Shown: positions 1 through 14,740, counted from the stretch's first letter. The stretch is 24,283 nt of DNA from Methylocystis sp. (GCA_022843525.1 JALHNR010000015.1:1-24283); one strand, 5' to 3'. The notes: a model not told the origin generated them from the sequence alone. Made by a program: numbers and translations.

Positions 1-641
1 TCGGACTCAAATTCACATCTCGATTATCCAGGGCGATGCGTCGATGGATGCCTCCGATCTCTGGAGAGCCTTAGCGGCGATTGAGCCAAGCGAGCGTTCG
101 TTCGACCAACGCCGTGCGCGAGGATGAATTCCAAGGTATCGATTTCGGAGGACCGCAAGCCTCGCTCGCGCTATTGCGGAAGCGAGCGGTGTGGCGCCCC
201 CTTAGCATCGACAGTCACGCGGGAAAGGCAATCCGTTCTCAGCCGCGACGTTCACTCACACGCGCCAATCACGTCACCCTTTTATAGCGGGCGTTGCTTG
301 CTATTACCGCACCGAGCGGCTTGCGTGTCGCAGCTTTCGTTGACAACGAAGGAAATTGGTGGATCATCGCGCCTGCGAGGGTGGCGATCCCTCTTTCAGG
401 CGGTATGCCCAAGCATCGCGGACGGCTCTTCAAAGCCGAGGATTCCGGATGCCGTCTTTATATCGACGTCTGTCTATGGACTTGACCGCTCGGCTCTACA
501 TTTGGCGGCGCGCCCCGGAGCGTCTGTTGTCGCGCCAGCAAAGCTGCGCGCGCAGCACGCGGCGGCTTTCTCATTGCGCCTCGCCTTGAACGCAGGCCGG
601 CGGGCGCTTCGAATCCATCCAAAATCAAAAGGAGAAAGCCC

Positions 642-1619
642 TTGGCTTCCGCGATCATTCGCATTGTTCTCTTAACGAGCGCCCTGGCGCTTGCAATAGG
701 CGCGCCGCAGCTGCGCGCCGAACCTGCGACGCCCATCAAGGGGACCGCCTATGTGACCTCGTGGTTCGGCGGCGTCGTTTCCGTTATAGATCTCGCATCA
801 GGCGCACTGAAGAAGAAAATCCCAGTCGGCATCCACAATCATAACGTCACGCTGCGTCCCGATCAGAAACAAGCTTGGGTCACGAACAACAACGCGGGAA
901 CCCTATCCATCATCGATACGCAAGCAAATAGCGTGATCAAGTCGCTGCCAACAGGAAAGGGTCCGCGACACATCTTTTTCAGCGCCGATGGCAAGGAAGC
1001 ATACGTTACGAACGAGTTCGACGACCGGGTGGAAATTTTTGACGCGCAGGCGGGTGCATCGCTTGGCGTCGTCAAGGCGGGCTCGATGCCGCATTTCGCG
1101 CTCGCTTCAGGCGACAGGCTTTTCGTCTCGAATTTCGGCGGCGGCGACGTGACGGTGCTCTCACGCGCAAAACGCCAGGCGCTCGCGACGATCGCTGTCG
1201 GAACGGGGCCGCTGGGCCAAGGCGCGACCAAGGACGGCAAGCGCGTCTATGTCGCCTGTCACAACGCCAATCACGTCGCCGTAATCGACGCCGAAAGCCT
1301 TCGGCGGATAGCGGATGTCGAGACCGATGCGGGCCCGGTGCAAGTCACGGTCGCACCAAATCAGACCTTCGCTTATGTCGCTAATGACGGGGCGGGCACG
1401 GTGCAGAAAATCGACCTTGCCGTGAACAAAGTCGTCAAAACGATCTCCATAGCGCCGGACGCGGGCAGTCACGGCGTCGGCTTCGCCGGCGACGGTCGCT
1501 GGCTCCTCATCACCAATACGGGAGCCAACAGCCTCTCGATCTTCGACACGCAGACGGATGAGATTGTGAAGACAATCTCCGTTCCGACAGCGCCTGAAGG
1601 CGTTGCGGTCCGGCGTTGA
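642..1619 (+). CDS. Secreted seven-bladed YVTN-type beta-propeller repeat protein
   Basis: 325-aa ORF. The TTG start at 642 lies 7 nt after GGAG (631-634). The N-terminus ASAIIRIVLLTSALALAIGAPQLRAEP looks like a signal peptide. There are seven roughly 40-aa repeats, each with a YVTN-like strand (AYVTS, AWVTN, AYVTN, LFVSN, VYVAC, AYVAN, LLITN). Confidence 0.85.
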   Translation: MASAIIRIVLLTSALALAIGAPQLRAEPATPIKGTAYVTSWFGGVVSVIDLASGALKKKIPVGIHNHNVTLRPDQKQAWVTNNNAGTLSIIDTQANSVIKSLPTGKGPRHIFFSADGKEAYVTNEFDDRVEIFDAQAGASLGVVKAGSMPHFALASGDRLFVSNFGGGDVTVLSRAKRQALATIAVGTGPLGQGATKDGKRVYVACHNANHVAVIDAESLRRIADVETDAGPVQVTVAPNQTFAYVANDGAGTVQKIDLAVNKVVKTISIAPDAGSHGVGFAGDGRWLLITNTGANSLSIFDTQTDEIVKTISVPTAPEGVAVRR

Positions 1620-1903
1620 AAAGCATCTTTGTTGCGAAACGGGGGAGACGCTCGCAATTCGATGGCGCCAGACTGCCCGAATCAGTCTTGTTCTCTTTAG
1701 CTATAACGGCGCTTCGAAATTCCACGGACTATCGTCCGTGCCGCGGGCGTCGTTTAGCAGCTTTCCCTGCCCGCAGCGGATCAGAGACTTAGTTGCGCCG
1801 CAAAAAATCCCAGCCGTTCATGAGGATGGCATTTCCCTCAAGTGTTGCTACATTTGGCTGCGGTACGCGTTTGTCCCGCACCCGCGTTAATTTCGCCTGA
1901 GCC

Positions 1904-2608
1904 GTGATGGAAATTATGCAACGATCTAATGCAGAGTGGCTGACGGCGCTTCAGGAGGGCGGTCGAGACCAACAGTTAGCGCTTGCGGACCTTCGAGCGC
2001 GACTGCTTGCGGCAATTCGGGCCTATTTGGCGAAAGGCTACGCCACGCAAGAATCAACGCGTTCAGATGAAGCGCAGCACCTTGCTGAAGACTGCGCACA
2101 AGAGGCCATTCTCATTATACAATCAAAACTTGGAGACTTTCGCGGCGAAAGCCGCTTTATGACTTGGGCTTATTCAATCGCAATCAGAGTCGTGCTCGGA
2201 GAGCTGCGCCGCCGTCGCTGGCGAGAAGCTACGATCGAGCGCGCTCAGCTTGGACAGACTTTGCCGGCTTGGCCGATTCAAGAACCGGGGCCGGAGCGCA
2301 GTCTACAGCAGCGCGAAGCGTGGACTCTACTGGCGCGACTTATCGGCGCCAAGCTTACTCCCTTGCAACGGACTGCACTTGTCGCTCACGCTTTTCAGGG
2401 AATGCCCTTGGACGAGGTCGCCGAATGGTTGGGTTCTAATCGGAATAGTCTTTACAAACTCATCCACGATGCGCGTAAACGGCTTAAGCAGGCTTTGCTC
2501 GAAGAAGGCGTGACGCACAAAGATCTTATTGCCGTGTTTGACGAGCCAAAATCGGGAACCCATCTCCATTCGGAGGGTAAGACTTCCTCCGTTCAACGCA
2601 TCTTATAA
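1904..2608 (+). CDS. ECF-type (group IV) sigma-70 family RNA polymerase sigma factor
   Basis: 234-aa ORF. It has a region-2-like segment FMTWAYSIAIRVVLGELRRRRW and a region-4 HTH LTPLQRTALVAHAFQGMPLDEVAEWLGSNRNSLYKLIHDARKRLKQAL. The start is ambiguous (GTG 1904, ATG 1907 or ATG 1916). Confidence 0.85.
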   Translation: MMEIMQRSNAEWLTALQEGGRDQQLALADLRARLLAAIRAYLAKGYATQESTRSDEAQHLAEDCAQEAILIIQSKLGDFRGESRFMTWAYSIAIRVVLGELRRRRWREATIERAQLGQTLPAWPIQEPGPERSLQQREAWTLLARLIGAKLTPLQRTALVAHAFQGMPLDEVAEWLGSNRNSLYKLIHDARKRLKQALLEEGVTHKDLIAVFDEPKSGTHLHSEGKTSSVQRIL

Positions 2609-2614
2609 TCAGTC

Positions 2615-2875
2615 GTGCCGGAACCCGACATGAAACACAAAGACTTTACCCGCCTCATTGACACCGTCTTCGCCGCTAAGAGCGGAGAGGAGATGCTGTG
2701 CACGGAATATTTTGATGAACTTCCACGTTACGTCGATATTGAGGCATCCGGTCAGGACGCCGGAGCCTTATTGCCCGAGGTTAAACACCATATGCATCAG
2801 TGCCCCGAGTGCGAAGAGGTTTATCTCGCCCTTCTGAGACTCGTGAACGCAGAAAAAACTTTTCCTTCGAGGTAA
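2615..2875 (+). CDS. Small soluble zinc-finger (ZAS-type) anti-sigma factor candidate
   Basis: The ORF begins 7 nt after the sigma stop (GTG 2615, or ATG 2630 giving 81 aa). It contains H-x3-C-x2-C (HMHQCPEC) plus an upstream Cys (MLCTEYF) about 30 residues earlier, which is the ZAS ligand pattern. No hydrophobic transmembrane segment is visible. Confidence 0.6.
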   Translation: MPEPDMKHKDFTRLIDTVFAAKSGEEMLCTEYFDELPRYVDIEASGQDAGALLPEVKHHMHQCPECEEVYLALLRLVNAEKTFPSR

Positions 2876-2929
2876 GACCTCAGAATTCCGTCGCATCTAA
2901 GTCGTATCGGATCGAACTGGTTGGCGCGC

Positions 2930-2946
2930 GCGATCGAATCGATCGC
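2930..2946. promoter_or_regulatory. Perfect 8-1-8 palindrome GCGATCGA-A-TCGATCGC upstream of the multicopper oxidase gene
   Basis: Read directly from the sequence. It lies about 42 bp upstream of ATG 2988, in the 112-bp gap between the anti-sigma and MCO genes. The binding factor is unknown. Confidence 0.3.
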
Positions 2947-2987
2947 CGGCATTGTCCCCGGTTCTCCGCTCGAAGGAGTGTGATGCG

Positions 2988-3965
2988 ATGCTAAGAACCT
3001 GGGCGCAGTTGGGGATTTCACGTTCGTTCGCGTTTTTGCTCATGTGGCCAGGCGCACTTCTCGCCGCTAGCGCAGCCTCTGCCGCCGACCAACATTTGAT
3101 CACGCTCAAAGCAAGCGCAATGCCGTCGGGTCAGCTGGCCTATGAGATGGTCAGTCACAAGGTCAAATCCTCCACAGGAAAGGAAAGCGACCTTATGGAG
3201 CGGTATGCGAGCGGTCCTACCATCCCTGGTCCCACGCTCGTCATGAAAGAGGGGGACGTCGCTGAGGTGACTCTTCAACATGGGATCGCCGACTCGGCTT
3301 TGCCGGTCAGCATCCATGTCCACGGCGTGCACTTCAAGATCGACAGCGATGGCACCATGAAGGTTTTGAATGGCGTCGCCGACGAAGCTGCGTTCCCAGA
3401 CAAACCTTACACATACAAATGGACGGCCGCGCCTGGAACGGCAGGCACGTGGGCCTATCACGATCATGCATTCGGCAATCCGATGCTCGGAGCCGAGGAC
3501 AAGGGGCTGTTCGGTACGCTCATCATCAATCCGGCGAGCGGGAAGGTTCCTGCGCTCATCGATGGCAAGATCGTCGACGTTGATCTTGCCGATGTGAAAC
3601 GCGAATTCATTATTTGGATGCATGAAACGACCTTTTGGGGCCAGGAGCTCAATCATATCATCGAGGGCGGCAAGGAGATTCCGTTATGGACTAATCCGAC
3701 CGTCGGTGCGCGCCTGGGCGAAAAGGTTCGCTTCCACGTCATGGGGCTTGGCACCGCGTTCCATACTTTCCATCTCCATGCGCATCGCTGGATCGAGCCC
3801 GGAGCAACCGCCGCCGTTGACACCGTCAACATTGGTCCAATCAGCCGCACCTCGTTCATCGTGAAGGCCGGCGAGGGTGTTGGCCCCGGCGACTGGCACT
3901 ACCACTGTCACGTTATCCAACACATGCAGTCTGGGATGATGGGTGATTTCCGCGTCATCGAATGA
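2988..3965 (+). CDS. Two-domain multicopper oxidase (small-laccase/SLAC-like layout)
   Basis: All four MCO copper motifs are present: HVHGVH, WAYHDH, HTFHLHAH and HYHCHVIQHMQSGMM. About 325 aa is too short for a three-domain MCO. The N-terminus MLRTWAQLGISRSFAFLLMWPGALLAASAASAADQ is signal-like. ATG 2988 is preceded by GAAGGAG (2972-2978). The ORF track extends to TTG 2952. Confidence 0.85.
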   Translation: MLRTWAQLGISRSFAFLLMWPGALLAASAASAADQHLITLKASAMPSGQLAYEMVSHKVKSSTGKESDLMERYASGPTIPGPTLVMKEGDVAEVTLQHGIADSALPVSIHVHGVHFKIDSDGTMKVLNGVADEAAFPDKPYTYKWTAAPGTAGTWAYHDHAFGNPMLGAEDKGLFGTLIINPASGKVPALIDGKIVDVDLADVKREFIIWMHETTFWGQELNHIIEGGKEIPLWTNPTVGARLGEKVRFHVMGLGTAFHTFHLHAHRWIEPGATAAVDTVNIGPISRTSFIVKAGEGVGPGDWHYHCHVIQHMQSGMMGDFRVIE

Positions 3966-3968
3966 TCA

Positions 3969-5834
3969 ATGACGAACGGGGGAGTTAAAGGCATGAACCA
4001 CGCAACAATCATGAACCGCGTATCCTTTCTGACGTTGGCCGTGGCGACGACCTCGCTCGCTGCGTCGCTGTCGGCGCAGGCGAAAGACGCCGTGAAATCT
4101 GACGACGTTATCATCAGCCGCCCCGGCGTCCTACCGTCGGCCGTGCTGGAGATGACCGACGAGCCCGGCAAATGGTTCAAGGATCCCAAGAGCGGCGGCT
4201 CGCTCGTTGTGGTGAAGCCTGGCGAGGCGGTGCTCATCAAGATGACGGACACCAATACGGATCACACCATCACCAGTCTTGCCTGGCAGCCGGGCGCGGA
4301 CAAATTCCCGGTCGATCAGGAGAAGCCGTCGAACGCCAGCGTCACGCAGACCTTCGACAAACCGGGGCTCTATGTCTTCACCTGCAAGGTTCATCCCTAC
4401 ATGTTCGGCGCCGTTGTCGTCGACGATCCGAAGACGGAAGGGCTGGACATCGGCGGCGAATTGCAGCTCGTGACCGGCGCCAAAGTTCCGACGACAAGCG
4501 ACATCGCCAAGAAGCTGCTGCGCACCTTCTTCGTCGCCACGACGCCGGCGCTATGGCGCGACTATCGGCAGCCGAAGTGGGAGGTGAAGCTTCCCGATCT
4601 CGGACTCAATCTCGGCGGCGCGCAGATCAATCTGAGCGCGCTCAGCCTCTCGGCGCCGAACACGCTGCTGACGCCCCAGACGCCCGGCGTCGGCGAGGTC
4701 TGGGTCAACACGCAGTTTGAAGGCGTGAGCGGCAAGACGAAGTTCGGAACGGCGACGCAAATCGACGCGACGGACTGGACGCTCAAGAAAAAAGTCAAGG
4801 GCGTCGAGCAGAATATGAACAATCCCCACAATATGTGGCCCGATCCGACATATAAATACATTTATCAGACGGAATGGTTCGACAAGCGGCTGACCACCTT
4901 TGACCGCGAGAGCGGCAAAGTTCTTAACACACAGGTCGTTGGACAAAATCCGTCTCATGTGATGACGAGCCCGATAACCGGCATGCTCTATGTCGCCATC
5001 AATGGCGAGGACCGCGTGGCGAAACTGTCGCCTGGCGAATTCCCTTCGGCGATGGGCAACATTAATGTCGGCTCGCATTCCGGCCCGCACGGCCATCACC
5101 TCACCGACGACGGCAAATATATGATGACGCCGAACGCGCTGGCGGGAAGCGTTACCGTCGTTGATCTCGCGACCGAGAAAGCGACGGAAATTCCGACCGG
5201 CGGCGTTATCCCGATCGCGATCTGGAGCGACATGAACCATAAGGGCTATGCCGCCAATCTGCTCGGCACGCCCCCCGCCATGCTCTCCTCATTGACGGTG
5301 ATCGACATTGACAACAAGAAGAAGGTCAAGGACATCGACCTCGCTGCCGATTACGATCCGATCAGCGGCGCGCACAAGGGCGAAGCTTATGGCCTGCTTC
5401 CGATCCAGACCCCGGTGAGCCCTGACGGCAAATACGTCGTTACGGCGAACACGTTGAGCGCCACGGTCACGATCGTCGATGTGAAGACGGACAAGGTGGT
5501 GAAAAGCCTGCCCTGCGAAGCAGGCTGCCACGGCGTCAACTTCGGACACAAGAAGGGAGGCGGCTATTACGCCTATGTGGCGAGCAAATTCGCCAATGAC
5601 TTGATCGTTATCGACATGGATAAGCTCGAAGTTGTAGGCCGCATTCTGCTCGCGGATTCTAAGGACGGTCAGATCAACGCGCATAACGGCATGGGTGGAC
5701 AGGGCGTGTTGCCCTTGCCGATCGTCGAGCGGGGCATGCTTGCGCCCACGCTAAAACTCGCGGGAACAGGCAAGTTGAGCGCCGAAGTCGAGGGATGGCT
5801 CAAGCTTCTAACCAAGGAGCAACGCGGCAACTGA
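3969..5834 (+). CDS. Secreted fusion protein: N-terminal type-1 cupredoxin (amicyanin-like) plus C-terminal YVTN-like beta-propeller
   Basis: 621-aa ORF starting 3 nt after the MCO stop. ATG 3993, behind GGAG (3981-3984), is an alternative start. The signal-like segment is MNRVSFLTLAVATTSLAASLSAQA. The cupredoxin ligand pattern is His in TDHTITS followed by C-x2-H-x2-M in FTCKVHPYM. Propeller blades follow (LYVAIN, YMMTPN, YVVTAN, AYVASK, each followed by v-v-D turns). Confidence 0.8.
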   Translation: MTNGGVKGMNHATIMNRVSFLTLAVATTSLAASLSAQAKDAVKSDDVIISRPGVLPSAVLEMTDEPGKWFKDPKSGGSLVVVKPGEAVLIKMTDTNTDHTITSLAWQPGADKFPVDQEKPSNASVTQTFDKPGLYVFTCKVHPYMFGAVVVDDPKTEGLDIGGELQLVTGAKVPTTSDIAKKLLRTFFVATTPALWRDYRQPKWEVKLPDLGLNLGGAQINLSALSLSAPNTLLTPQTPGVGEVWVNTQFEGVSGKTKFGTATQIDATDWTLKKKVKGVEQNMNNPHNMWPDPTYKYIYQTEWFDKRLTTFDRESGKVLNTQVVGQNPSHVMTSPITGMLYVAINGEDRVAKLSPGEFPSAMGNINVGSHSGPHGHHLTDDGKYMMTPNALAGSVTVVDLATEKATEIPTGGVIPIAIWSDMNHKGYAANLLGTPPAMLSSLTVIDIDNKKKVKDIDLAADYDPISGAHKGEAYGLLPIQTPVSPDGKYVVTANTLSATVTIVDVKTDKVVKSLPCEAGCHGVNFGHKKGGGYYAYVASKFANDLIVIDMDKLEVVGRILLADSKDGQINAHNGMGGQGVLPLPIVERGMLAPTLKLAGTGKLSAEVEGWLKLLTKEQRGN

Positions 5835-5851
5835 ACCATTGCAATTCAGCT

Positions 5852-5884
5852 CCGATGGATAGCCCCGAGCAGGGCTTCCATCGG
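5852..5884 (+). terminator. Long imperfect hairpin downstream of the cupredoxin-propeller gene
   Basis: CCGATGGA-T-AGCCC [CGAGCA] GGGCT-TCCATCGG starts 18 nt after the stop codon. It has a 13-bp stem with one bulge. No U-tract follows, so terminator function is uncertain. Confidence 0.35.
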
Positions 5885-5945
5885 GGTGATCAGTTGTTAC
5901 CGCAACAGACGCAGCACTCGCCGAATAATGTTAGGAGAAACGCGA

Positions 5946-6632
5946 ATGATCGAGCGTCAAGCCAACAAGACAGAACATCTGGTTTCGGCCCATGCAGATC
6001 GATTTCGTGACGGCCCGAGTCGTTTAATGGGTTTGGACAACAACTTTAGCGGAGTCCGAAGGTCGAAGCGTACCCAGGCTGAAGCTGAAGCGGCTGTGCG
6101 GGTTCTTATCGAATGGGCAGGCGACGATCCGAACCGCGAAGGTTTGATCGATACGCCTGAGCGGGTGGCGCGTTCTTATCGCGAATTGTTCGCTGGCTAC
6201 GCCGCCGATCCTCGCGAATATCTCAAGCGCACGTTCGAAGAAGTGGGCGGTTATGACGAGCTGGTCGTATTGAAGAACATCCGCGTCGTTACTTTTTGCG
6301 AACATCACATGCTGCCGGTGATCGGACGCGCGCATGTCGGTTACCTGCCGACAAACCGGGTCGTGGGAATCTCCAAACTGGCGCGGGTCGTGCACGGATT
6401 CGCGCGTCGATTACAGATTCAGGAGAAGCTAACCGCTGAGATCGCCGAAGCCATCCAGGAAATTCTCGAGCCGCAAGGAGTAGGAGTGGTCGTCGAGGCC
6501 GAACACAGTTGCATGACCTTGCGTGGCGTGAACACGCTCGGATCCACATTGACCACTAGCCGGTTACTCGGCGTAATCCGCGACGACGCCCGCTCACGAG
6601 AGGAATTCCTCGGCATGGTGCGCCGAGCCTAG
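5946..6632 (+). CDS. folE: GTP cyclohydrolase I (type 1, FolE)
   Basis: Family motifs are present: [54 protein letters not shown] and [16 protein letters not shown] 5946 follows AGGAG (5933-5937). The ORF track opens earlier, at 5886. Confidence 0.9.
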
Positions 6633-6745
6633 AATTTGGACCAGCGGCTGACGAAAGAAGCATTGGGAGCGGAACGCCATGGAAGATGGCATTCTCTAAG
6701 TTCTCCCGCTTGTAATTTTGCCTCGACCCGAGGGACCGGCTCTAG

Positions 6746-7018
6746 ATGGAGACCGTTGCACGAGCGTTGTCGCCGATAATAGCTCGAGCCTTGAATCTGG
6801 AAGACGGGGGGTTTCCAAATCTGGAGATCCGCAACGGTGAGCTCGTTGGAACGATAGTTGCTTGTGCGGTAGAAATGCGCGCTGACCTGATCGTTATGCA
6901 GACCGATGGTCGCGATAGCGCTTTGGACTCGATCATCGGGAGCACAACCGAGCGCGTCATACACGAAGCGCCTTGCTCCCTAGATGACGTGAACCGAGAG
7001 CGTCTGTTTGGAAGGTAG
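6746..7018 (+). CDS. Universal stress protein (UspA-family) C-terminal fragment, probably truncated
   Basis: The 90-aa ORF ends with the USP C-terminal signature ADLIVMQTDGRDSALDSIIGSTTERVIHEAPCS. An in-frame TAG sits immediately upstream of the ATG. The N-terminal half of a normal USP domain of about 140 aa is missing. Confidence 0.5.
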   Translation: METVARALSPIIARALNLEDGGFPNLEIRNGELVGTIVACAVEMRADLIVMQTDGRDSALDSIIGSTTERVIHEAPCSLDDVNRERLFGR

Positions 7019-7102
7019 CGGCGACTCGGGAACTTTCACAGGGTGCTTTGCTTTTTGATGCGCAGCGCCTGCCGGTTCGCTGCTGAGTTTCAGGAGGGCG
7101 TC

Positions 7103-9409
7103 GTGGAAAGCGCGCGTAAACTCTGGATCACGCTCATCGCCCTGTTGGTGCTCTCCTTTGCCGTGCTTCTGCTCATCGGCCGGGAAATAAGCGTCAAGGC
7201 GCCGCCTTTGCCCGAGCGCGTCGTTACGGAAACAGGACGCACGGTCTATACCCGTGCTGACATCGAGCGCGGGCGTCAGGTCTGGCAGTCCATCGGCGGC
7301 ATGCAGCTCGGCTCCGTCTGGGGCCATGGCGGCTACGTCGCGCCAGACTGGACCGCCGACTGGCAGCACCGAGAACTCGTCGCCATCCTGGACGCCTGGG
7401 CGCGCCGCGAGTTCGCGGCCGGCCGCTACGCTGATCTCAGCGAGGAGCAGCAGAGTTCTCTGCGGGGACGGCTGCGCCCGATGATGAGGCGAAACACCTT
7501 CGATCCGAAAACTGGGACAATTACTGTTTCTGAGGAGCGCGCTCAGGCGATCGACCTCGTCTCGAGCCACTATGAGAGCCTGTTCGGCGACGATCCGCGC
7601 AGTGCGGAACTTCGCGAGAACTACGCAATGAAGAACGGCACTGTCGACGACGCCGAGCATCGGCGGGCGCTAGGCGCCTTCTTCTGGTGGACCGCGTGGG
7701 CCGCGACCACGGAGCGGCCGGGAAGCCACGTCACCTACACCAACAACTGGCCGAGCGAACCGCTGGTCGACAACCGCCCGCCTGCGACCACCTTCATCTG
7801 GTCTGCGTTCAGCGTGGTATTCCTGCTTGCCGGCATCGGCCTGCTCGGCTGGCACCGCGCCGTCAGTCATGCACACGGCGCCGAGACGTGCGATGTGCCC
7901 GCGCGTGATCCGATGCGCAACGTAAGGGTCACGCCGTCCATGCGCGCGACCGCCAAATATTTTTGGGTGCTTCTTGCCCTGTTTCTCGTCCAGATCCTGT
8001 TCGGCGCCATAAGCGCCCATTACCAGGTCGAGGGGCAGCTGTTTTACGGCTACCCGATGGCGGAGATCCTCCCCTATTCGATCACCCGCACCTGGCACAC
8101 GCAATTGGCCGTGCTGTGGATCGCCACCGCCTGGCTCGGCACTGGGCTCTACATGGCGCCGGCGATTTCCGGGTACGAGCCCAAGTTCCAGGCGCTCGGC
8201 GTCAATGTGCTCTGGATCTGCTTGCTGATCATTGTGGTCGGCGCCTTCGCGGGCCAATGGCTCGCGGTCATGCAACGGCTGGGATTGGAACACAATTTCT
8301 GGTTCGGGCATCAGGGCTGGGAGTATGCCGATATCGGGCGTTTCTGGCAGTGGTTCCTTTTTATCGGCCTGCTGCTGTGGCTCTCCCTCGTCGGCCGCGC
8401 CTTGTGGCCGGCGCTACTGGCAAAAACTGAGTCACGCTCGATCGTCGCTCTTTTCTTCCTCTCGACGGTCGCAATTGGCCTGTTCTACGGCGCGGGGCTG
8501 ATGTGGAACGAGCATACGCATCTGTCGATGGTCGAATATTGGCGGTGGTGGCTGGTTCACTTGTGGGTGGAAGGGTTTTTCGAGGTGTTCGCCACCGCGG
8601 TCGTCGCCTTCCTGTTCACCCGCCTCGGCCTGGTCGCAGTCAAGCCGGCAACTTCGGCGGTGCTGTTCGCGACGATCGTCTTTATGGCCGGCGGCGTGAT
8701 CGGCACGCTCCATCATCTCTATTTCGCCGGCACTCCGATGTCGGTGTTGGCGCTTGGCGCCAGTTTCTCCGCGCTCGAAGTCGTGCCGCTCGCCTATATC
8801 GGCTTCGAGGCCTATGAGCATTGGCGGTTCTGCGGCGCCACGCCCTGGATGCAGCGCTATAAATGGCCCGTGCTGTTCTTCATCGCGGTCTCCTTCTGGA
8901 ATCTGGTGGGAGCCGGTCTGTTCGGTTTCCTGATCAACCCGCCGCTCTCGCTCTATTACATGCAGGGGCTCAACCTGACACCGCTGCACGGCCACACGGC
9001 GCTGTTCGGCGTCTATGGGATGCTCGGCATCGGCCTCGTGTTGTTCTGCCTGCGCGGAATGATGCCCGAACTCGTCTGGAACGAGAAGATCCTCAGCATC
9101 AGCTTCTGGTGCTTCAACGTGGGGCTGGGGATGATGGCGTTGTTCACGCTCCTGCCGCTCGGCACGCTGCAACTCCTTGCCGCGATCAATGAAGGTTATT
9201 GGTACGCCCGCTCTGAGCAGTTCATGCAGCAGCCGATCGTCGATCTTCTGGTATGGATGCGCGTGCCGGGCGACACGGTCTTTTCGATAGGCGCATTGGC
9301 CTTCGCCTGGTTCGTTGTCAGCCTGTGGCTCCGGCCGCGCCGCCAGCCTCATGAAGTGGAGCAGGAGGACAGGGAACTGGAGGCGGGACCGGCGAAGCGT
9401 GCGGCGTGA
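7103..9409 (+). CDS. norB: Quinol-dependent single-subunit nitric oxide reductase (qNor; NorB/NorZ type)
   Basis: The N-terminal extension (KAPPLPERVV, GSVWGHGGYVAPDWTADWQHRE) is fused to a multi-TM haem-copper-oxidase core (WVEGFFEVF, HHLYFAG, LHGHTALFGVYGM). The length of about 770 aa fits qNor, and no norC is adjacent. GTG 7103 follows AGGAGG (7092-7097). The ORF track opens at GTG 7043. Confidence 0.9.
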   Translation: MESARKLWITLIALLVLSFAVLLLIGREISVKAPPLPERVVTETGRTVYTRADIERGRQVWQSIGGMQLGSVWGHGGYVAPDWTADWQHRELVAILDAWARREFAAGRYADLSEEQQSSLRGRLRPMMRRNTFDPKTGTITVSEERAQAIDLVSSHYESLFGDDPRSAELRENYAMKNGTVDDAEHRRALGAFFWWTAWAATTERPGSHVTYTNNWPSEPLVDNRPPATTFIWSAFSVVFLLAGIGLLGWHRAVSHAHGAETCDVPARDPMRNVRVTPSMRATAKYFWVLLALFLVQILFGAISAHYQVEGQLFYGYPMAEILPYSITRTWHTQLAVLWIATAWLGTGLYMAPAISGYEPKFQALGVNVLWICLLIIVVGAFAGQWLAVMQRLGLEHNFWFGHQGWEYADIGRFWQWFLFIGLLLWLSLVGRALWPALLAKTESRSIVALFFLSTVAIGLFYGAGLMWNEHTHLSMVEYWRWWLVHLWVEGFFEVFATAVVAFLFTRLGLVAVKPATSAVLFATIVFMAGGVIGTLHHLYFAGTPMSVLALGASFSALEVVPLAYIGFEAYEHWRFCGATPWMQRYKWPVLFFIAVSFWNLVGAGLFGFLINPPLSLYYMQGLNLTPLHGHTALFGVYGMLGIGLVLFCLRGMMPELVWNEKILSISFWCFNVGLGMMALFTLLPLGTLQLLAAINEGYWYARSEQFMQQPIVDLLVWMRVPGDTVFSIGALAFAWFVVSLWLRPRRQPHEVEQEDRELEAGPAKRAA

Positions 9410-9421
9410 TCCGCCACTTGC

Positions 9422-9820
9422 ATGGAAGCCTATTACTTCGAGATTCGCGCTGTCCACATCGCGGCGGCGCTCGCGAGCGGCGGCTTCTACCTTATGCGCG
9501 CGCTCGCTTTAAACTTGCTCGCCGCGTCATGGCCGCTGTCGATAGTCGCGCGGCTTGCCTCCTACTCGATCGATACCGTGCTCTTTACGGCTGCCCTCAT
9601 GCTGATGGCCGTCACGCGTCAATACCCGTTTGGTGACACTTGGCTGACCATGAAGGTCGTGGTCATGCTGCCGCTCTATATTTTCCTTGGTTACTGGGCG
9701 CTCCGAGCCAAGGCGTTCAAGTTGCGGTTGGCGGCGATGGCCGGCGCGATCGCGGCTTTTCTTTTGATTTATAGCATCGCACGCACGCACAGCCCGCGGG
9801 GCGTGTTTGCGCTTGGGTGA
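9422..9820 (+). CDS. SirB2-like small integral membrane protein
   Basis: 132 aa with four hydrophobic segments. SirB2-like features are IRAVHIAAALASGGFYLMR, SIDTVLF and PFGDTWLTMKVV. It starts 12 nt after the norB stop, so it is probably co-transcribed. Confidence 0.65.
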   Translation: MEAYYFEIRAVHIAAALASGGFYLMRALALNLLAASWPLSIVARLASYSIDTVLFTAALMLMAVTRQYPFGDTWLTMKVVVMLPLYIFLGYWALRAKAFKLRLAAMAGAIAAFLLIYSIARTHSPRGVFALG

Positions 9821-9861
9821 GAAACGTCGTCAGCTTGGTCGGCCTTGCCTCGAACCCGCCT

Positions 9862-11070
9862 TTACGTCGTTGGATGCAAGCGCTTCGTCGTCAACATCCC
9901 GAAATAGAGCAGCACGAAGAGCCCGTACGCCAAGCTCCACATGCCCCCGGCGGCGGCGATCGCAGCAAAGTAATACGCGCCCGTAAAAGGGGCGCCAATG
10001 CGCAGGATGGCCGCAAATGTTATGGCGATGTAGATCGCGGCCGTTCTCTGATCTGCGACGAGCGGGCGCCCGGTGTGGCCGCGCGTTGCACGAGTCATCA
10101 CCGCGAGCGTCATTGTTCCGATGGCGCCGACGGTGAGGGCATGCAGAGGCGCTGCAGAATCCGTGGCCCAGAATAGTTTGTTGCCGCCCATGAGCAGGAA
10201 GCCCAAGGGAACCCAGCCATATCCCAGATGCAGCACGAAGAGCATCGGTTCCGCCCGCGCGCTGACGCCGCGCCAGCGGATAAGACGTAGAAAGAGCGCC
10301 GCCCCGGCGATAATCAGGAGACCCGCCGTAGGCCCCGCGTCAGGGAACGCGGCCCAGGCGATGAGCGCCACAAGCGTCGCCGCCAGCGCGAAACGATCGA
10401 AAGCGCCGAAAGGCGCCGGCTCCACTTCAGCTGGCGAATTCTTCGCGAGCCAGTTGCGGGTGAAGCTCGGCGTGATGCGCCCCCCGATGATGGCGATGAG
10501 CATGACGAGGGTCGCGACGCCGACGCGGGCCCCGATGGCGCCCGTTGCGGCAAGGCCGATCGCTTCGAGATGCGTGAGCAAATTCCCGATAAAGAGAAGC
10601 GCAAGAGCGGCCACCATGGGCAAGTTGCGCCAGTTCCGCCCCGTGGCGATCTCGCGCGCGACAACGAAGATAAAGACCGCCGGGAAAGCGAGGTCGAGCG
10701 CCGCAGAGACGAGCGCAGGCGCACTATTTGAAGTCAGGACGGCGATGCGCCCCAGCAGCCAGAGAGCGACGAGGCCGGCGAGCGGCGCGCCTTGTAAGGG
10801 CAGTCGACCGGTCCAGTTTGGAATGGCCGTCAGCAAGAATCCCGCGACGACGGCGCCGCCAAAACCGAAGGCCATTTCATGCGCGTGCCAGAGAGAGGGC
10901 GCGAAGCGTGTCGGCAGTTCGGCCGCCGCCTCCAGATAGGCGATGGAGAGCGGCAGCCCGACAGCGGCCCAGAGCGCGGCAAAAAGGAAGAAGGGGCGGA
11001 AACCCGCTGAAAGAAAGATCGCCACAGGGTTTTGACTCGCCTGAGCGCGATATCGCGGAATTGGAGGCAT
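9862..11070 (-). CDS. nnrS: NnrS family haem/copper membrane protein (NO-stress associated)
   Basis: 402-aa polytopic membrane ORF. The N-terminus carries GFRPFFLFAALWA, WHAHEMAFGFGGAVVAGFLLTAIPNWTG and GRITPSFTRNW, typical of NnrS. It is convergent with the norB-sirB2 unit. Confidence 0.9.
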   Translation of the reverse strand: MPPIPRYRAQASQNPVAIFLSAGFRPFFLFAALWAAVGLPLSIAYLEAAAELPTRFAPSLWHAHEMAFGFGGAVVAGFLLTAIPNWTGRLPLQGAPLAGLVALWLLGRIAVLTSNSAPALVSAALDLAFPAVFIFVVAREIATGRNWRNLPMVAALALLFIGNLLTHLEAIGLAATGAIGARVGVATLVMLIAIIGGRITPSFTRNWLAKNSPAEVEPAPFGAFDRFALAATLVALIAWAAFPDAGPTAGLLIIAGAALFLRLIRWRGVSARAEPMLFVLHLGYGWVPLGFLLMGGNKLFWATDSAAPLHALTVGAIGTMTLAVMTRATRGHTGRPLVADQRTAAIYIAITFAAILRIGAPFTGAYYFAAIAAAGGMWSLAYGLFVLLYFGMLTTKRLHPTT

Positions 11071-11097
11071 CGTTGACTTCCCCTTTGGAATTGATGA
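10461..11097 (-). repeat. Left copy of a roughly 0.63-kb direct repeat (5' third of nnrS plus about 25 nt of leader)
   Basis: It aligns base-for-base by eye with 18704-19334, with roughly one mismatch per ten bases and one 3-nt indel (EAAAELP versus ETAELP). Confidence 0.85.
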
Positions 11098-11189
11098 TGG
11101 GCTGGCGCTCGGTCACTAACGCACACATCGAGCGCGCAGGTCGCGAGCCTCGCGTTAGAAGCCAGCGGAATGTCACGGAGGGGAGGGGA

Positions 11190-11490
11190 AGATCAATAGG
11201 CCTTCTCTTGCGACACCATTCCTTCTTCTACGCGGATTCCCCGCAGATTGCGAAGGCGTTGCGAGGAAAGCGTCGCGCGCCACCGGCGTGGGTTGCGCTC
11301 GGGGCGTTCCTCGCCCTTGTGACCGCGACGACATGGATATCGACGAGCTCTTCCGCGAACCGCCGCGGGCGGCTGAGCGATAGTGGCCGAATTCGGTAAC
11401 GCGATGGCCAAGCCGAACGCGCGTCACTGCCACTCGTGGTCAAATCGCGGCGCTCCCTGATCAGTGGTGCAGGATCCGTGCAACCTCATG
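11190..11490 (-). pseudogene. Nitrile hydratase accessory/activator-like gene, decayed
   Basis: The ATG (complement of 11488-11490) overlaps the alpha-subunit 3' end. It reads MRLHGSCTTDQGAPRFDHEWQ-TGA-RAFGLAIAL. This resembles the accessory-protein motif (P-x-F-D-E-P-W-Q-x-R-A-F-A-L) but carries an in-frame stop. Downstream similarity is scattered over three frames. Confidence 0.45.
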
Positions 11491-11976
11491 ATGGCGCTCC
11501 GGCCAGCGCGACAAGCATATCGACTCGGTCGTCACGAGCTCCATCAGCTGCGCCTCGGTAAAATCCTCTGTCGCTGCTGGCCTTTCAGGAATTACGAAAC
11601 ACCGCGCCGTCCCGCTGCTGTCCCACACCCTGATCTCCGTTTCCTCGGGCAGTGGACGCCAACCTCGGCGAGCACTTTCCGCGGCTCGCGGGCCGCGCGG
11701 GCGCGAAATACCGGATCGGCAATCCCAGCACCGGCCATGGGAAGCACGAGCAAAGCGAGCAGATGATCAGGTTGTGCACCTCGGGCGCGTTAGCGACGGC
11801 CCGCAGGTGCTCGCCCTCGGCGCCGGCCATTCCCTCGGGCAGGTCGAGTTTGGCAATTGCGGCCGGGGTGTCGGCCAGGAGCCGGGCCAAGAAGCCCGCG
11901 TCGGTCCACGCTCGCACGACGATCTTTCTTGCCGTTGAGCGGACGCGGTCCTGCGGATACTTGAATGGCCGCTCAT
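11461..11976 (-). pseudogene. Nitrile hydratase alpha-subunit-like gene with multiple frameshifts
   Basis: The metal-binding claw motif is IICSLCSCFPWPVLGLP (codons at 11744-11761), preceded by RKIVVRAWTDAGFLARLLADTPAAIAKL. The C-terminal sequence continues in two other frames (DPVFRARAAREPRKVLAEVGVH, then LPEETEIRVWDSSGTARCFVIPERPAATEDFTEAQLMELVTTES). The ATG overlaps the beta stop (ATGA) but is out of frame with the conserved part. Confidence 0.8.
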
Positions 11977-12673
11977 GCAGGTTCCTCCAAGTATATCTCG
12001 AACAGTTCGGCGTAAAGCGTCTGCGCGCCGGGTTCCGCGCGCGGACCCCACAATTCGGTCGGCGTGAACTCGACGATGTAGACGGGCATTGGATCGCCGA
12101 TGCCATCGCCAGTGTGCCAGAAGTAGACACAGTCGCCTTCGAGCACCTGCGCCACCGTGCCGCTCCGCCCCCGCAGATAGCCGGGCAGGCGAGTGTGCGC
12201 GCCAACTGGGACATTTGCGATCCGGACCCGCTGCCCGACGGCGAACTTCGAATGCGCGACGTCGCGCCGCGGGCTGTCGCCGTTACGTAGATATGCGATG
12301 ATCTGCTCGTCGATGGCTTCAGCCCGATCGGATCCCCTGGCCGAGCGCCGTCCGGCCTGGCCGCTTCGCCACGCAGTTAGCTTGTCCGCGAGGCTAATTC
12401 GTCCTCGCGCAGGTATCCTTGTCGACGAGGAATGGGGATGCCGCTGAGCCACTTCTCGTAGTAACGGAATTTGAAGTAGTCGAATGGATCCATCGCCTCG
12501 GCGCCAGCGCGCAGATCCGCCCATGTCCACATGTCGCGGAAGGCGGTCGGCACGTAGGCGATCGCGCAGGCCGGCACGGACGAGTCGAGATGGCCCGAGA
12601 GAGCCATCATCGCCACATAGATGCCGAATATCCGATTTCCCACTGCCTCGGCAGGCTGGTTCAGAAAAAAGGG
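11973..12673 (-). pseudogene. Nitrile hydratase beta-subunit-like gene, 5'-truncated and frameshifted
   Basis: The N-half lies in one frame (12377-12643: DPFDYFKFRYYEKWLSGI). The C-half lies in another (FAVGQRVRIANVPVGAHTRLPGYLRGRSGTVAQV...VYIVEFTPTELWGP...LYAELFEIYLEEPA). An in-frame stop at 12674-12676 removes the usual first roughly 25 residues. No start codon is available for an independent C-half. Confidence 0.75.
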
Positions 12674-12817
12674 TCAATTCGGATCTGGAGCGCTTTTCCG
12701 ACGTTGTCCAAAATAGGCTCAGAGTTGTGGAAGGCAAAGGCCGCAACACGCCGACGGTGGAATCGGAGGATCAGGGACGACGCGCGCGGAAGATGCGGAG
12801 CGGCGGCGAATGAGCGC

Positions 12818-13200
12818 ATGACGCCTAAAGAAGTTGTCGCGCTGGTTCTTCAAGGCGGCGGCGCGCTCGACGCCTATTAGGCGGGCCCGTTCGAGGCGCT
12901 CGCGGCGGGGGATATTGTCCGCAGTGGCTCGCCGGCATTTCGATCGGCGCGATCAACGCCGTGATCATTTGCCGCAATCATCCGGAAAAGCGCGTCGAGC
13001 GCCTGCGCGCCCTTTGGGAACGCGTGATAAGCAGGACGCCCCTTCCCTTCAATCTGGACGGATTCCTCGGTCCCATTTTTGCCAACGCCAGCGCAAATCC
13101 CCTAGCGACGGTTGGCGCGCCCGGTTTTTAGGCTGCGTCTACCGCCTCCGGCCCTCTTATGGCCCTATTCAGCGCCCGGCTATCCCACCTCATATCTTCC
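12818..13200 (+). pseudogene. Patatin-like phospholipase gene remnant
   Basis: It reads MTPKEVVALVLQGGGALDAY-TAG-AGPFEALAAG. It then continues in another frame as PQWLAGISIGAINAVIICRNHPEKRVERLRALWERV (G-x-S-x-G nucleophile elbow) and in a third frame as PVFRLRLPPP. It ends after about 130 codons against the convergent sigma gene. Confidence 0.75.
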
Positions 13201-13261
13201 CTTCCGAATAGTTCCATCAAGCAGACTTATGCGGCTGAGGTACGGGGCTCTCGACCCGCCG

Positions 13262-13987
13262 CTACTCTTCGCTGGCCAGCCCTTCCGCTTTACAGCGTTC
13301 GAGGACACCGGTCACGATGCGGTCGCACCGCGCGCCGGCGAAGGCGAAAACGTCGCTTAAGCCCGCGTCCATCTCCTGGGCAAGGCTTTCGCGCAACAGG
13401 CTGCTAGCTCGGAAGAAGCGCGTACGCACCGTCGCCTCGGGGATCTCCAGCGCCTCGGCGGTTTCTTCGACGCTCATCTCCTCGATCGCGCGCAGCATGA
13501 ACACCGTCCGGAAGGCCTCCGGCAGAAGGTCGATGCGCGCCTCCAAGAGCTTGCGCATCTGAACCCGCATCATCGATTGTTCTGGGCTACGCTCAGGCTC
13601 ATCGTTCAGCGCTGTCTGGGCTTCAGATTCATGGGGCGTCATGGCAGCTTCCAAAGGAATGATCTGGGCACTCTTTCGCCACAAGCGGCCGAGCGCTTCA
13701 TGGGTCGTGATCCGCACAAGCCAGGTATAGAGCTTGCTCTCGGCGCGATAGTTTCCAAGCGCGCGCCACGCCCGCAGATAGGTGTCCTGGACGACATCCT
13801 CCGCCTCCGCATCATTGTGCACGATGCTACGCGCCGTACGGAACAGAAGCTGGTTGTGCCGTCGCATGATGGCTTCGAACGCCACTCCGTCACCGTCAGC
13901 GGCGCGCGAGATCAGCTCTGCCTCCGGCGTGGTTTTCGATAAGCTATTTGCCGCCTGACGCTGAAGTGATTGCATTTGCGCCTCCAT
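13262..13987 (-). CDS. ECF-type sigma-70 family sigma factor with a short Cys-containing C-terminal extension
   Basis: Region 2 is AEDVVQDTYLRAWRALGNYRAESKLYTWLVRITTHEAL. Region 4 is LPEAFRTVFMLRAIEEMSVEETAEALEIPEATVRTRFFRA. A roughly 35-aa tail follows (DVFAFAGARCDRIVTGVLERCKAEG). ATG 13975, behind GGAGG, is an alternative start. Confidence 0.85.
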   Translation of the reverse strand: MEAQMQSLQRQAANSLSKTTPEAELISRAADGDGVAFEAIMRRHNQLLFRTARSIVHNDAEAEDVVQDTYLRAWRALGNYRAESKLYTWLVRITTHEALGRLWRKSAQIIPLEAAMTPHESEAQTALNDEPERSPEQSMMRVQMRKLLEARIDLLPEAFRTVFMLRAIEEMSVEETAEALEIPEATVRTRFFRASSLLRESLAQEMDAGLSDVFAFAGARCDRIVTGVLERCKAEGLASEE

Positions 13988-14195
13988 TCATTGAACAGGT
14001 AGGCTACCGGCGTGCCTTTGCCGGCGCTGCCGCTATAGGGATCGCGCGCGCCGCGTCTTCCGGATCGCGCAGCAATTCCATCATGCCCGCGACCATCGCG
14101 AAAGCGATCAACGCGTCGATGAGTATCACGGCTCCTTTCCGGGCGTACGGGCGATGGCGGGGCGCCGTTCCGTCGTCGCCCTTGGCGTTGTCCGA

Positions 14196-14609
14196 CTAAT
14201 GTTCGAACTTCGTTGGGAAGGCGGCGATCAAACCGTTGGTCAGGGCATCGGCCAGCATCATCATATGAGCCTCCGCCTTTCCATATTCGGCGATGCCGTT
14301 GGCATATTTGCCCTGCAAAAGCCCCGTGGCGTAGACCACAGTTGTGTCGATATGCCCCTTGAGCCTGTCGCGTACCTTGGTTTGCGGCCAGTTCTCGTTC
14401 GCCTTGGCGAGAAAATCGGCAATTTCCTGCGCGTTTGCGTAGGCGGCTGCGACGGACTTGTCGGTGGCCGGCTTGTCGCCGGCCTTGGCGGCTTTCACGA
14501 CCTCGACGGCTGCGCCGATATGCTCCTGAAGCAGCTTGGTGAGCGCGTTACCAGCTGCATCGCCATAGAAGGGCTTGATAGCGTCGCCGATATCGGGCTG
14601 GTTCTGCAT
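14196..14609 (-). CDS. Hypothetical all-alpha protein (conserved-looking, function unknown)
   Basis: 137-aa ORF ([43 protein letters not shown]...) with helical-repeat character. Its ATG shares one base with the stop of the upstream signal-peptide ORF. Confidence 0.6.
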
Positions 14610-14740
14610 CAGTCGCGCTGCATGTTAACGGAATAGGCGGCGGTCGGGCGGAAAACGGGAGTAGCCATAAGTGCGGCGGCGAAGCCCGCAAGGGCGAGGC
14701 GGCGATTAACGGCCGGGTGGAACATCTGCACGCGTGTCAT
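14609..14740 (-). CDS. 43-codon ORF encoding only a signal-peptide-like sequence (probably the detached 5' end of the 14196-14609 gene)
   Basis: The ATG (complement of 14738-14740) lies 6 nt after AAGGAGA. The peptide is [43 protein letters not shown]. Its stop overlaps the next ATG (TGATG). Confidence 0.35.

Follow-up and report, generated by a model that had tools for sequence, protein, structure and literature searches.

A conserved pair of a multicopper oxidase and a cupredoxin-propeller protein in Methylocystis, and its probable link to nitric oxide

Introduction

This work concerns a 24,283-nucleotide stretch of DNA from Methylocystis sp. (GCA_022843525.1 JALHNR010000015.1:1-24283), the whole of which is referred to as the window, and within it the genes between positions 642 and 11,070 (g1 to g10), where secreted copper proteins are encoded beside enzymes of nitric oxide (NO) metabolism. 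The functional core is a four-gene unit encoding an ECF sigma factor (g2), a soluble ZAS anti-sigma factor (g3), a two-domain multicopper oxidase (MCO, g4) and a fusion of a type 1 (T1) copper cupredoxin with a β-propeller (g5). The reading that we favour, with moderate confidence, is that the MCO and g5 are the two halves of one periplasmic copper oxidoreductase for NO or related reactive nitrogen species, which is switched by the ZAS/ECF pair and carried in a mosaic window.

Hydroxylamine and NO are unavoidable intermediates in methanotrophs and ammonia oxidisers, and, to our knowledge, the enzymes that dispose of NO oxidatively, and the archaeal hydroxylamine/NO machinery generally, are still unidentified. 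The pMMO of methanotrophs co-oxidises ammonia to toxic hydroxylamine, which is turned over to NO and nitrite (PMC3794950, PMC9600857), and in Methylocystis SC2 transcripts of plasmid-borne multicopper oxidases and of norB are raised under high ammonium (PMC9600857).

The nearest biochemical precedent for the pair described here is Nmar_1354, the archaeal MCO4 of Nitrosopumilus maritimus. In this two-domain MCO, an attached T1 cupredoxin is held 13.5 Å from the T1 site of the MCO, and the enzyme oxidises NH2OH to HNO with O2 (PMC11761707). The likeness lies in the combination of a homotrimer-type two-domain MCO with an extra T1 cupredoxin, in a host that makes hydroxylamine by means of a copper monooxygenase, and in the occurrence of g4 and g5 homologues fused as MCO-cupredoxin proteins in soil ammonia-oxidising archaea (P0243, P0248, P0268). 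By contrast with MCO4, which has no propeller, the extra cupredoxin is here part of a second protein, g5, where it is followed by a seven-bladed propeller with five invariant histidines; g4 itself is SLAC-like by sequence, and the activity suggested below for g4/g5 is a proposal.

In Nitrosomonas europaea, the NsrR-repressed operon ncgABC-nirK starts with a two-domain blue copper oxidase. Control of nirK by NsrR has been described (PMC1274295). The shared feature is a small periplasmic MCO heading a nitrogen-oxide operon that is under an Rrf2/NsrR repressor, as in Methylocaldum and a related metagenome-assembled genome (MAG; locus L033), where MCO-g5 is found beside an NsrR-like gene and two NsrR boxes. 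The differences are that MCO-g5 occurs without nirK or cytochromes c, that g4 is of type B (T1 copper in domain 2) rather than type C, that the partner of the MCO is a cupredoxin-propeller protein, and that the regulator in the window is an ECF/ZAS pair.

The regulatory genes resemble SigR-RsrA in that an ECF sigma factor is followed directly by the gene for a cytoplasmic anti-sigma factor of ~80 amino acids with a Cys...H-x3-C-x2-C motif; they differ in that the apparent g2/g3 regulon is a periplasmic copper enzyme pair, not thiol-repair genes, and in that the match to RsrA is weak. With NosZ and clade III NosZ, g5 has in common a seven-bladed propeller, hub-facing histidines (in g5 as judged from a model) and a cupredoxin domain for electron entry; however, the domain order of g5 is reversed, its copper is T1 and not CuA, it has five histidines and not seven, and it is without nos accessory genes. 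A 2026 paper records proteins with a cupredoxin and a 'CuZ-domain' in ammonia-oxidising archaea, giving no role for them (PMC13464753). Compared with the qNor-NnrS loci governed by NorR, NsrR or NnrR, the qNor, SirB2-like and NnrS proteins of the window are ordinary members of their own families, as are FolE and the ECF and ZAS proteins, while such a regulator or its box was not found in the window. NO-linked periplasmic copper oxidase modules are of an already known kind, e.g. ncgA-nirK and MCO4; what is new is the combination of an MCO with a cupredoxin-propeller enzyme, its repeated capture by different NO-type sensors, and the use of a ZAS/ECF switch for MCO-g5 in alphaproteobacterial methanotrophs.

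Results

The MCO and g5 are encoded as a pair

The elements of the four-gene unit are as follows.

1823-1851, + strand: 29-bp conserved sequence AGGATGGCATTTCCCTCAAGTGTTGCTAC, which may be an autoregulated ECF promoter
1916-2608, + strand: g2, ECF-type sigma-70 factor (Sigma70_r2, r4_2; TIGR02937, 79 bits)
2633-2875, + strand: g3, small soluble ZAS anti-sigma factor, RsrA-like (ATG 2633, 80 amino acids; 80-86 depending on the start)
2988-3965, + strand: g4, secreted two-domain MCO, SLAC-like, type B (Cu-oxidase_3 and Cu-oxidase_2; likely ATG 2988)
3993-5834, + strand: g5, secreted T1 cupredoxin, linker and seven-bladed propeller with a histidine-rich hub (start 3993 or 4011)
5849-5886, + strand: strong stem-loop directly 3' of the g5 stop (-31.8 kcal/mol, z -5.5; none of 200 shuffled sequences reached this stability)

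Database searches with g5 returned full-length relatives (63-98% identity) in alpha- and gammaproteobacterial methanotrophs, including Methylocystis, Methylocella, Methylogaea, Methylocaldum, Methylobacter, Methylomicrobium, Methylotuvimicrobium, Methylohalobius and Methylocalor. This methanotroph tier comprises 53 de-duplicated loci, 49 of which include upstream DNA, and in all 49 a g4-type MCO is encoded immediately upstream of g5. The preliminary description of this DNA had set the copper genes and the NO genes together as one neighbourhood; compared across genomes, the MCO and g5 stay together, and qNor, SirB2 and NnrS accompany them in only 2 of 53 loci. Besides the pair itself, the sole conserved feature of the methanotroph loci is a regulator.

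A second tier, at 42-49% identity, begins with Nitrososphaera. With one genome scanned for each species, at least 579 g5 loci were obtained, the best 80 of which add Nitrosocosmicus, Nitrospira, Nitrosospira, Acidobacteriota, Chloroflexota and Rokubacteria. Members of the family occur mainly in methanotrophs and in nitrifiers (Nitrososphaera, Nitrosocosmicus, Nitrospira, Nitrosospira). Synteny in the distant clade (Nitrospira, Acidobacteriota and others) is lineage-specific only, apart from H-NOX and occasional MCOs. Two g5-family paralogues lie within a few kb of one another in Nitrospira (L072, 9968-16847) and in Nitrosospira (L073, 10022-15828), and in the Nitrospira locus a 661-residue multicopper oxidase is encoded between them, making three genes in a row. 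When g5 was searched by tblastn against a plasmid database, only two M. rosea plasmids were returned, and the ammonium-induced MCOs of Methylocystis SC2 plasmid pBSC2-2 can therefore not be equated with g4.

The two proteins also occur as one. Using the cupredoxin-linker part of g5 as the query against 1.84 billion cluster representatives, we found seven fusion proteins of 850-1070 amino acids (P0243, P0245, P0246, P0248, P0253, P0261 and P0268), with the order MCO, T1 cupredoxin, propeller. They start with Cu-oxidase_3 and Cu-oxidase_2 domains, and their named sources are the soil ammonia-oxidising archaea Nitrososphaera and Candidatus Nitrosocosmicus; the same fusion is present at a Nitrosocosmicus genome locus (L081, 3602-6364). 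In P0243 (978 amino acids), residues 55-343 are 51% identical to g4 (E 6e-103), with every copper motif kept, and residues 363-964 are 41% identical to residues 60-612 of g5 (E 6e-137). On the grounds of the strict synteny and of these Rosetta-stone fusions, we propose that the MCO and g5 are parts of one enzyme.

Copper sites of the MCO and of g5

The MCO carries a Sec-type signal peptide, as do its orthologues, and the four copper motifs HVHGVH, YHDH, HTFHLHAH and HCHVIQHMQSGM are all kept in 18 methanotroph orthologues. Its ligand pattern (HxH, HxH, HxxHxH, HCH-x3-H-x4-M), with the T1 copper in domain 2, is that of type B two-domain MCOs, and its closest solved relatives in the PDB search are small two-domain laccases of the SLAC type (3t9w, E 4e-32). 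PDB entry 7RAB gives a full-length match to the MCO.

The g5 protein consists of a signal peptide, an amicyanin/pseudoazurin-like T1 cupredoxin (CKVHPYM) and a YVTN propeller; an AlphaFold (AF2) model (pLDDT 86.6, pTM 0.86) has a small β-sandwich, a helical linker and a seven-bladed propeller. Conservation was assessed over 73 distinct relatives, fusions included, down to ~40% identity. The T1 ligands (C139-x2-H142-x2-M145) are nearly invariant, with H99, C139 and H142 in 73/73 and M145 in 71/73. In the propeller, H287, H330, H374 and H521 are present in 73/73 and H376 in 72/73; M289 is kept in 73/73, Q480 in 72/73 and Q578 in 71/73. Propeller enzymes hold catalytic metals at the central channel or hub. 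In the model, the conserved propeller residues of g5 are assigned to the start of the innermost strand of successive blades, round the central channel, with the histidines on five blades, and so would be consistent with a histidine-lined metal site in the hub.

Fold searches with g5 returned generic seven-bladed propellers only, and no solved structure spans both of its domains (TM-score on the query ≤0.42). The sequence CEAGCH in g5 was considered as a CX3CH haem c motif and dropped, its two cysteines being present in only 69/73 and 66/73 relatives, with the histidine invariant.

The regulator beside the pair differs between lineages

In the window the regulator is the ECF/ZAS pair. The start of g2 is placed at ATG 1916 by a conserved MQRSN N terminus in 16 orthologues (the longest open reading frame (ORF) begins at 1904). 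The protein has sigma regions 2 and 4 only, and g3 begins 25 nt past the g2 stop. In g3, the sequence HHMHQCPEC (H-x3-C-x2-C) and an upstream cysteine in LC(T/S)EYF are conserved in 11 orthologues, and there is no hydrophobic segment; the match to the RsrA model is weak (E 4.5e-4, 20 bits versus a cutoff of 62.5).

The preliminary description had remarked that an ECF pair sits where an NO regulator would be expected, and orthologous loci bear this out, since the ECF-ZAS genes fill the slot that is taken elsewhere by NorR, Rrf2 or SufR-like proteins. The slot upstream of MCO-g5 holds ECF/ZAS in 19-20 loci, from Methylocystis, Methylocella and some gammaproteobacterial MAGs; in a Methylocella MAG (L018, 6228-11836) the order is ECF, ZAS, FolE-like, second ZAS, MCO, g5, the anti-sigma gene being duplicated.

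Elsewhere the slot is occupied by other sensors. NorR is an NO-specific activator, and in Methylogaea oryzae the slot holds a genuine NorR (673 bits versus an equivalog cutoff of 476). A search for the sigma-54 pattern TGGCAC-N5-TTGC, made in the fetched loci only, showed a single perfect match in the 21.8-kb Methylogaea locus, TGGCACCACTATTGC, between norR and the MCO gene and facing the latter, with a TGTCA-N3-TGACA box (GT-N7-AC type) upstream of it. In Methylocaldum and the related MAG the slot holds an Rrf2 protein whose best model is NsrR (138-149 bits), and the intergenic DNA contains, in tandem, two sites that match the NsrR consensus ATGyAT-N5-ATrCAT described by Rodionov et al. (PMC1274295), against ~0.03-0.05 expected per locus; these are the only exact matches among 92 fetched loci. 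In 16 Methylococcales loci the slot is taken by a 226-residue SufR-like repressor with four conserved cysteines and an ArsR/SmtB-type helix-turn-helix (HTH).

The sensors found upstream of the pair or beside it rely on centres of haem, non-haem iron, iron-sulfur or zinc-thiolate type, and NO is what several of them sense. That such NO sensors recur upstream of the pair or as its neighbours is the main reason for placing the pair in the biology of NO and reactive nitrogen rather than in copper homeostasis.

In the window itself the marks of a classical NO regulon, i.e. a regulator of the Rrf2, GAF-sigma54 or Crp/Fnr type and a cognate NsrR or TTG-N8-CAA site, were not found. The preliminary description had reported the window to be free of NsrR, NnrR/Dnr-type, nirK/nirS, norC and nosZ genes and had not found a TTG-N8-CAA type box in it, and both statements stand: Pfam scans of the window gave no Rrf2, Crp/Fnr, NorR, NirK/S, NorC or NosZ, and there are three matches to the TTG-N8-CAA pattern versus 5.25 expected, none of them in a promoter region of norB or nnrS. 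The NsrR consensus has no match in the window even at two mismatches.

Transcription units

The 13 loci in which the block AGGATGGCATTTCCCTCAAGTGTTGCTAC (29-30 bp) was found, all from Methylocystis or Methylocella, each have a single copy of it, 65-95 nt before the start of the ECF gene, while the intergenic DNA around it does not align between loci. The full motif occurs nowhere else in the window and is not present before g1, the MCO gene, folE, norB or nnrS. It does not cleanly fit a named ECF consensus; at 1823-1851 it may be read as a candidate autoregulated ECF promoter. The stem-loop at 5849-5886 is likely to be the 3' end, or an attenuator, of the ECF-ZAS-MCO-g5 unit, and, of 27 methanotroph loci inspected, many have a GC-rich hairpin, often with a T-run, after the stop codon of g5. 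No convincing inverted repeats were found upstream of norB, nnrS or the ECF gene.

The idea of the ten genes as one transcription unit was not borne out, being contradicted by the ECF promoter block, the hairpins and the strand of nnrS. The hairpin after g1, the restriction of the promoter block to the ECF gene, the strong hairpin after g5 and the opposite orientation of nnrS instead point to at least five units: g1; ECF-ZAS-MCO-g5; folE; the remnant of a universal-stress-protein (USP) gene followed by norB-sirB2; and nnrS on the other strand. From the ECF gene as far as sirB2 all genes point the same way, which makes read-through possible.

The remaining genes and the setting of the window

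The other features of the region are as follows.

642-1619, + strand: g1, secreted YVTN/YncE-type β-propeller (Pfam YNCE, 80.9 bits; TIGR03866, 233.8 versus a cutoff of 287)
1670-1688, + strand: terminator-like hairpin with a T-rich tail, 3' of g1 (consensus scan; fold z +0.4, weak, suggestive only)
5946-6632, + strand: g6, GTP cyclohydrolase I, FolE (PF01227, 234.5 bits; NF006825, 252.9 bits, above cutoff; likely ATG 5946)
6746-7018, + strand: USP remnant, a pseudogene (C-terminal; positions 77-136 of 141 of the Usp profile only)
7103-9409, + strand: g8, intact single-subunit quinol-dependent NO reductase, qNor (NorB_cytochrome_c-like PF22085, 242.8 bits; COX1 PF00115, 196.4 bits)
9422-9820, + strand: g9, SirB2-family membrane protein (PF04247, 75.5 bits; 13 nt past norB)
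9862-11070, - strand: g10, NnrS, convergent with norB-sirB2 (PF05940, 375.4 bits; profile positions 2-371 of 371, full length)

These assignments come from Pfam scans of 40 ORFs of the window, a set that takes in all ORFs of gene length except those completely overlapped by a longer ORF, with starts revised from orthologue alignments and ribosome-binding sites. The ten ORFs of the preliminary description were recovered at or near the positions that it gave, with the domains that it named, and Pfam and NCBIfam agree on every call. Its 'unusual composition' applies to gene content and not to base composition: GC is 54-66%, without a step at the borders of 642-11070, and being unremarkable leaves gene content as the only sense in which the phrase can be used. 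Rfam and tRNA scans found no RNA genes in the window.

Translation of qNor likely starts at GTG 7103, 5 nt after an AGGAGG, giving 768 amino acids in an uninterrupted ORF, with a NorC-like N-terminal extension fused to the subunit I fold; no separate norC or cytochrome c ORF was found among the window ORFs by the Pfam scans. FolE is encoded 3' of g5 in 7 de-duplicated alphaproteobacterial loci, mostly Methylocystis; that this zinc-cysteine enzyme is a stress-induced back-up copy is speculation.

Positions 1-19323 of the window are 96.6% identical to the 214-kb plasmid of Methylocystis rosea BRCS1 (L001) and to a second M. rosea plasmid, and at its right end there are genes for the partition proteins ParA and ParB/KorB, with relatives on other Methylocystis plasmids. 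Two Cus/Czc RND systems, FixH/YtkA and transposases border the region in the M. rosea plasmid record. By the plasmid identity, the partition genes, and the flanking efflux systems and transposases, the window is a mosaic stretch of a megaplasmid of the type II methanotroph Methylocystis.

Several further observations were made on this plasmid DNA. Two overlapping ORFs at 11585-12749 (-) encode partial nitrile-hydratase α (profile 39-115 of 184) and β C-terminal domains, and may be pseudogenes, given that the PLSDB table shows no protein-coding gene there in the M. rosea plasmid. At 13262-13987 (-) there is another ECF sigma gene, unrelated to g2 (28% identity), with no recognisable anti-sigma domain in the adjacent ORFs. 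Between it and a DUF488 gene lies a 60-nt direct repeat of 85% identity (14798-14857 and 15075-15133). DUF488 genes occur within a few kb of MCO-g5 or NnrS in the window (15232-15759, -), in Methylocalor (L007, 13058-13444), there directly 3' of nnrS, and in a Methylocella MAG (L023, 6844-7296). A fragment of a family 1 encapsulin shell gene at 16166-16417 (-) (Linocin_M18 profile 149-212 of 253) is a further sign of gene decay on the plasmid.

Discussion

The place of the NO genes

The most serious of the competing explanations is that the copper operon, norB-sirB2 and nnrS are adjacent only because mobile DNA has been stitched together, with neither co-regulation nor co-selection; we regard this as a real possibility, if the lesser one. 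It bears on the linkage of norB and nnrS, and not on the function of the MCO-g5 pair. The history of the region gives it substance. A USP pseudogene, which differs from its counterpart on the M. rosea plasmid by indels of 24 nt and 1 nt, stands between the blocks, and identity to that plasmid, estimated by eye, shifts from ~99-100% left of ~7020 (ECF to usp) to ~95% from there through norB, many of the substitutions lying in the 80 nt that precede the norB start codon. A recombination breakpoint near 7020, in the promoter region of norB, would fit this pattern. The preliminary description's word 'intact' is true of the window; by contrast, norB of the M. rosea BRCS1 plasmid has an in-frame stop at codon E219, the protein being otherwise 97.5% identical, and in four close relatives (L010, L011, L015, L029) the norB ORF is shortened to the same 548 amino acids, so that norB seems to be decaying in several strains while the adjacent copper operon stays intact.

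Further to the right, a truncated second nnrS (18704-19323, -) matches the 5' end portion of the gene (10461-11083) at 91.8% identity; ~90 nt beyond it, a 55-nt stretch (19416-19470) is 83.6% identical to 6709-6763, just before the usp remnant; and homology to the M. rosea plasmid stops exactly at 19323. Together these suggest an ancestral cassette with divergent nnrS and usp-norB, and a recombination scar. The nearest plasmid norB, at 75% nucleotide identity, is from sphingomonads and lies a few kb from an Rrf2-hmp cluster. The absence of the ECF promoter block before norB and nnrS, and the strong hairpin 3' of g5, likewise fit an accidental juxtaposition.

Against it, qNor (40% identical to that of the window) and NnrS (37%) also flank the pair in Methylocalor, identities low enough for this co-location to be independent. 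Furthermore, the control of the pair by NO-sensing regulators elsewhere makes a shared stimulus likely even where transcription is not shared, and the common direction of the genes from ECF to sirB2 would allow read-through. Further NO-related genes recur beside the pair: cytochrome P460 is encoded within a few kb in two loci, and in Methylogaea is the next gene on the other side, and in two 'Ca. Angelobacter' (Acidobacteriota) loci a convergent H-NOX gene (PF07700, 120 bits) lies ~90-135 nt downstream of the g5 homologue (L077, 11797-12378, -; L080, 11059-11649, -).

Copper homeostasis and N2O reduction

An alternative function for MCO-g5 is that of a periplasmic cuprous oxidase or copper-handling system (compare CueO and CopA/PcoA) in organisms that depend on pMMO or AMO, in the window as a component of a metal-resistance plasmid, with the ZAS and SufR-like sensors reporting cytoplasmic Cu(I). 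MCOs are well known from copper resistance, organisms with copper monooxygenases are over-represented among the hosts of the family, and g4 gives a partial match to the CopA model TIGR01480, at 73 bits versus a cutoff of 479. The setting points the same way, with the two Cus/Czc systems and FixH/YtkA flanking the plasmid copy and an RND pump, YtkA and SMBP near the M. rosea chromosomal copy, as does the ArsR/SmtB-type HTH and cysteine set of the SufR-like regulator. However, the 53 loci show no conserved neighbour of the CopZ, CopA ATPase, CusF or CueR type; the ZAS sensor is cytoplasmic while the enzymes are periplasmic; and a sensor of Cu(I) does not account for an NO-specific NorR with a sigma-54 promoter facing the MCO, for NsrR-consensus boxes before the MCO in two loci, or for the qNor, NnrS, P460 and H-NOX neighbours elsewhere. 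We thus consider a role in copper homeostasis unlikely.

The metal-resistance context is clearest for g1, which occurs with MCO-g5 only in this plasmid lineage, and whose relatives (55-70% identity) are found among chromate transporters, Cus/Czc pumps, a CDF transporter and a P-type ATPase, another point that copper homeostasis can claim. The preliminary description had assigned three secreted copper/propeller proteins to the NO genes; for the MCO and g5 this is supported by the NorR, NsrR-like Rrf2, qNor/NnrS, P460 and H-NOX associations, and it does not extend to g1, which, being lineage-restricted, followed by a terminator-like hairpin and related to metal-resistance genes, is probably a neighbour and not part of the module. 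The possibility that g1 is a second metallo-propeller was rejected, its hub histidines not being invariant in the g1 family and its relatives lying in metal-resistance clusters.

That g5 is a permuted N2O reductase-like enzyme, reducing N2O or NO at a histidine-ligated copper cluster in the propeller next to the cupredoxin, is very improbable, even though a lactonase-type propeller family has recently been recognised as clade III NosZ (PMC13477213), g5 and g1 give partial matches to the L-NosZ NCBIfam model and cupredoxin/'CuZ-domain' proteins are noted in ammonia-oxidising archaea, because those matches reach only 61.7 (g5) and 100.5 (g1) bits against a cutoff of 700 (NF052460), g5 has five invariant histidines and not seven, its cupredoxin is an N-terminal, single-cysteine T1 domain and not a two-cysteine CuA domain, no nosDFYL or nosR genes were found in the window by Pfam scans, and its obligate partner is an O2-reducing MCO, which an oxidase fits better than a reductase.

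A proposed periplasmic oxidoreductase

The reading of MCO-g5 as one NO-related oxidoreductase has to be set against several points that weaken it. The qNor and NnrS genes accompany the pair in only 2 of the 53 methanotroph loci, and the norB junction looks recombinational, with the identity drop at ~7020, the usp pseudogene and the duplicated nnrS fragment. Both the plasmid copy and the M. rosea chromosomal copy are in metal-resistance or mobile contexts. As to the regulators, the NorR case and the NsrR case are each a single lineage; the NsrR-like Rrf2 protein scores under the NsrR equivalog cutoff (138-149 versus 182 bits) and ties with RirA; and the two commonest regulators are ECF/ZAS and the SufR-like protein, and sensors rich in cysteine can respond to copper or to general oxidants as well. 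The SLAC-like g4 is not demonstrably related to Nmar_1354 by sequence, the latter not being among the PDB matches in the g4 search. The putative hub metal site is drawn from conservation and predicted secondary structure only, and no published description of the MCO-g5 pair or of the g5 family was found in the literature searched.

With these points in mind, the following scheme is what we infer for the substrate, the signal and the direction of electron flow. The candidate substrates are NO, or the related NH2OH/HNO, made as pMMO and HAO co-oxidise ammonia. A membrane-permeant, thiol-reactive signal, NO or a related species, would attack the zinc-thiolate site of the cytoplasmic ZAS protein and so free the ECF sigma factor, which would transcribe its own operon, ECF-ZAS-MCO-g5, from the block at 1823-1851. 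In the periplasm, g5 would bind and oxidise the substrate at the histidine-lined hub metal site, and electrons would pass to the amicyanin-like T1 copper of g5, from there to the T1 copper of the presumably trimeric MCO and on to the trinuclear cluster, where O2 would be reduced. The qNor-SirB2 and NnrS proteins, as separate units, may act on the same stress at the membrane. The more specific suggestion that the MCO and the cupredoxin-propeller protein form a new class of copper enzyme, with a five-histidine hub metal site that oxidises NO or NH2OH/HNO to nitrite with O2, is doubtful at present and is offered as such.

Steps involving NO and hydroxylamine help to set N2O emission by methanotrophs and ammonia oxidisers. 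The pair is a concrete two-protein copper system, widespread in exactly the organisms that oxidise methane and ammonia, and tied to NO sensors in several independent ways; with a purifiable natural archaeal fusion also to hand, the question is therefore directly testable. The regulation of the pair may, in addition, reveal a new kind of sensing by a small ZAS anti-sigma factor. If the suggestion of a new enzyme class is true, MCO-g5 would be a candidate for the 'NO oxidoreductase' step, so far missing, that comes after the oxidation of hydroxylamine in organisms with copper monooxygenases.

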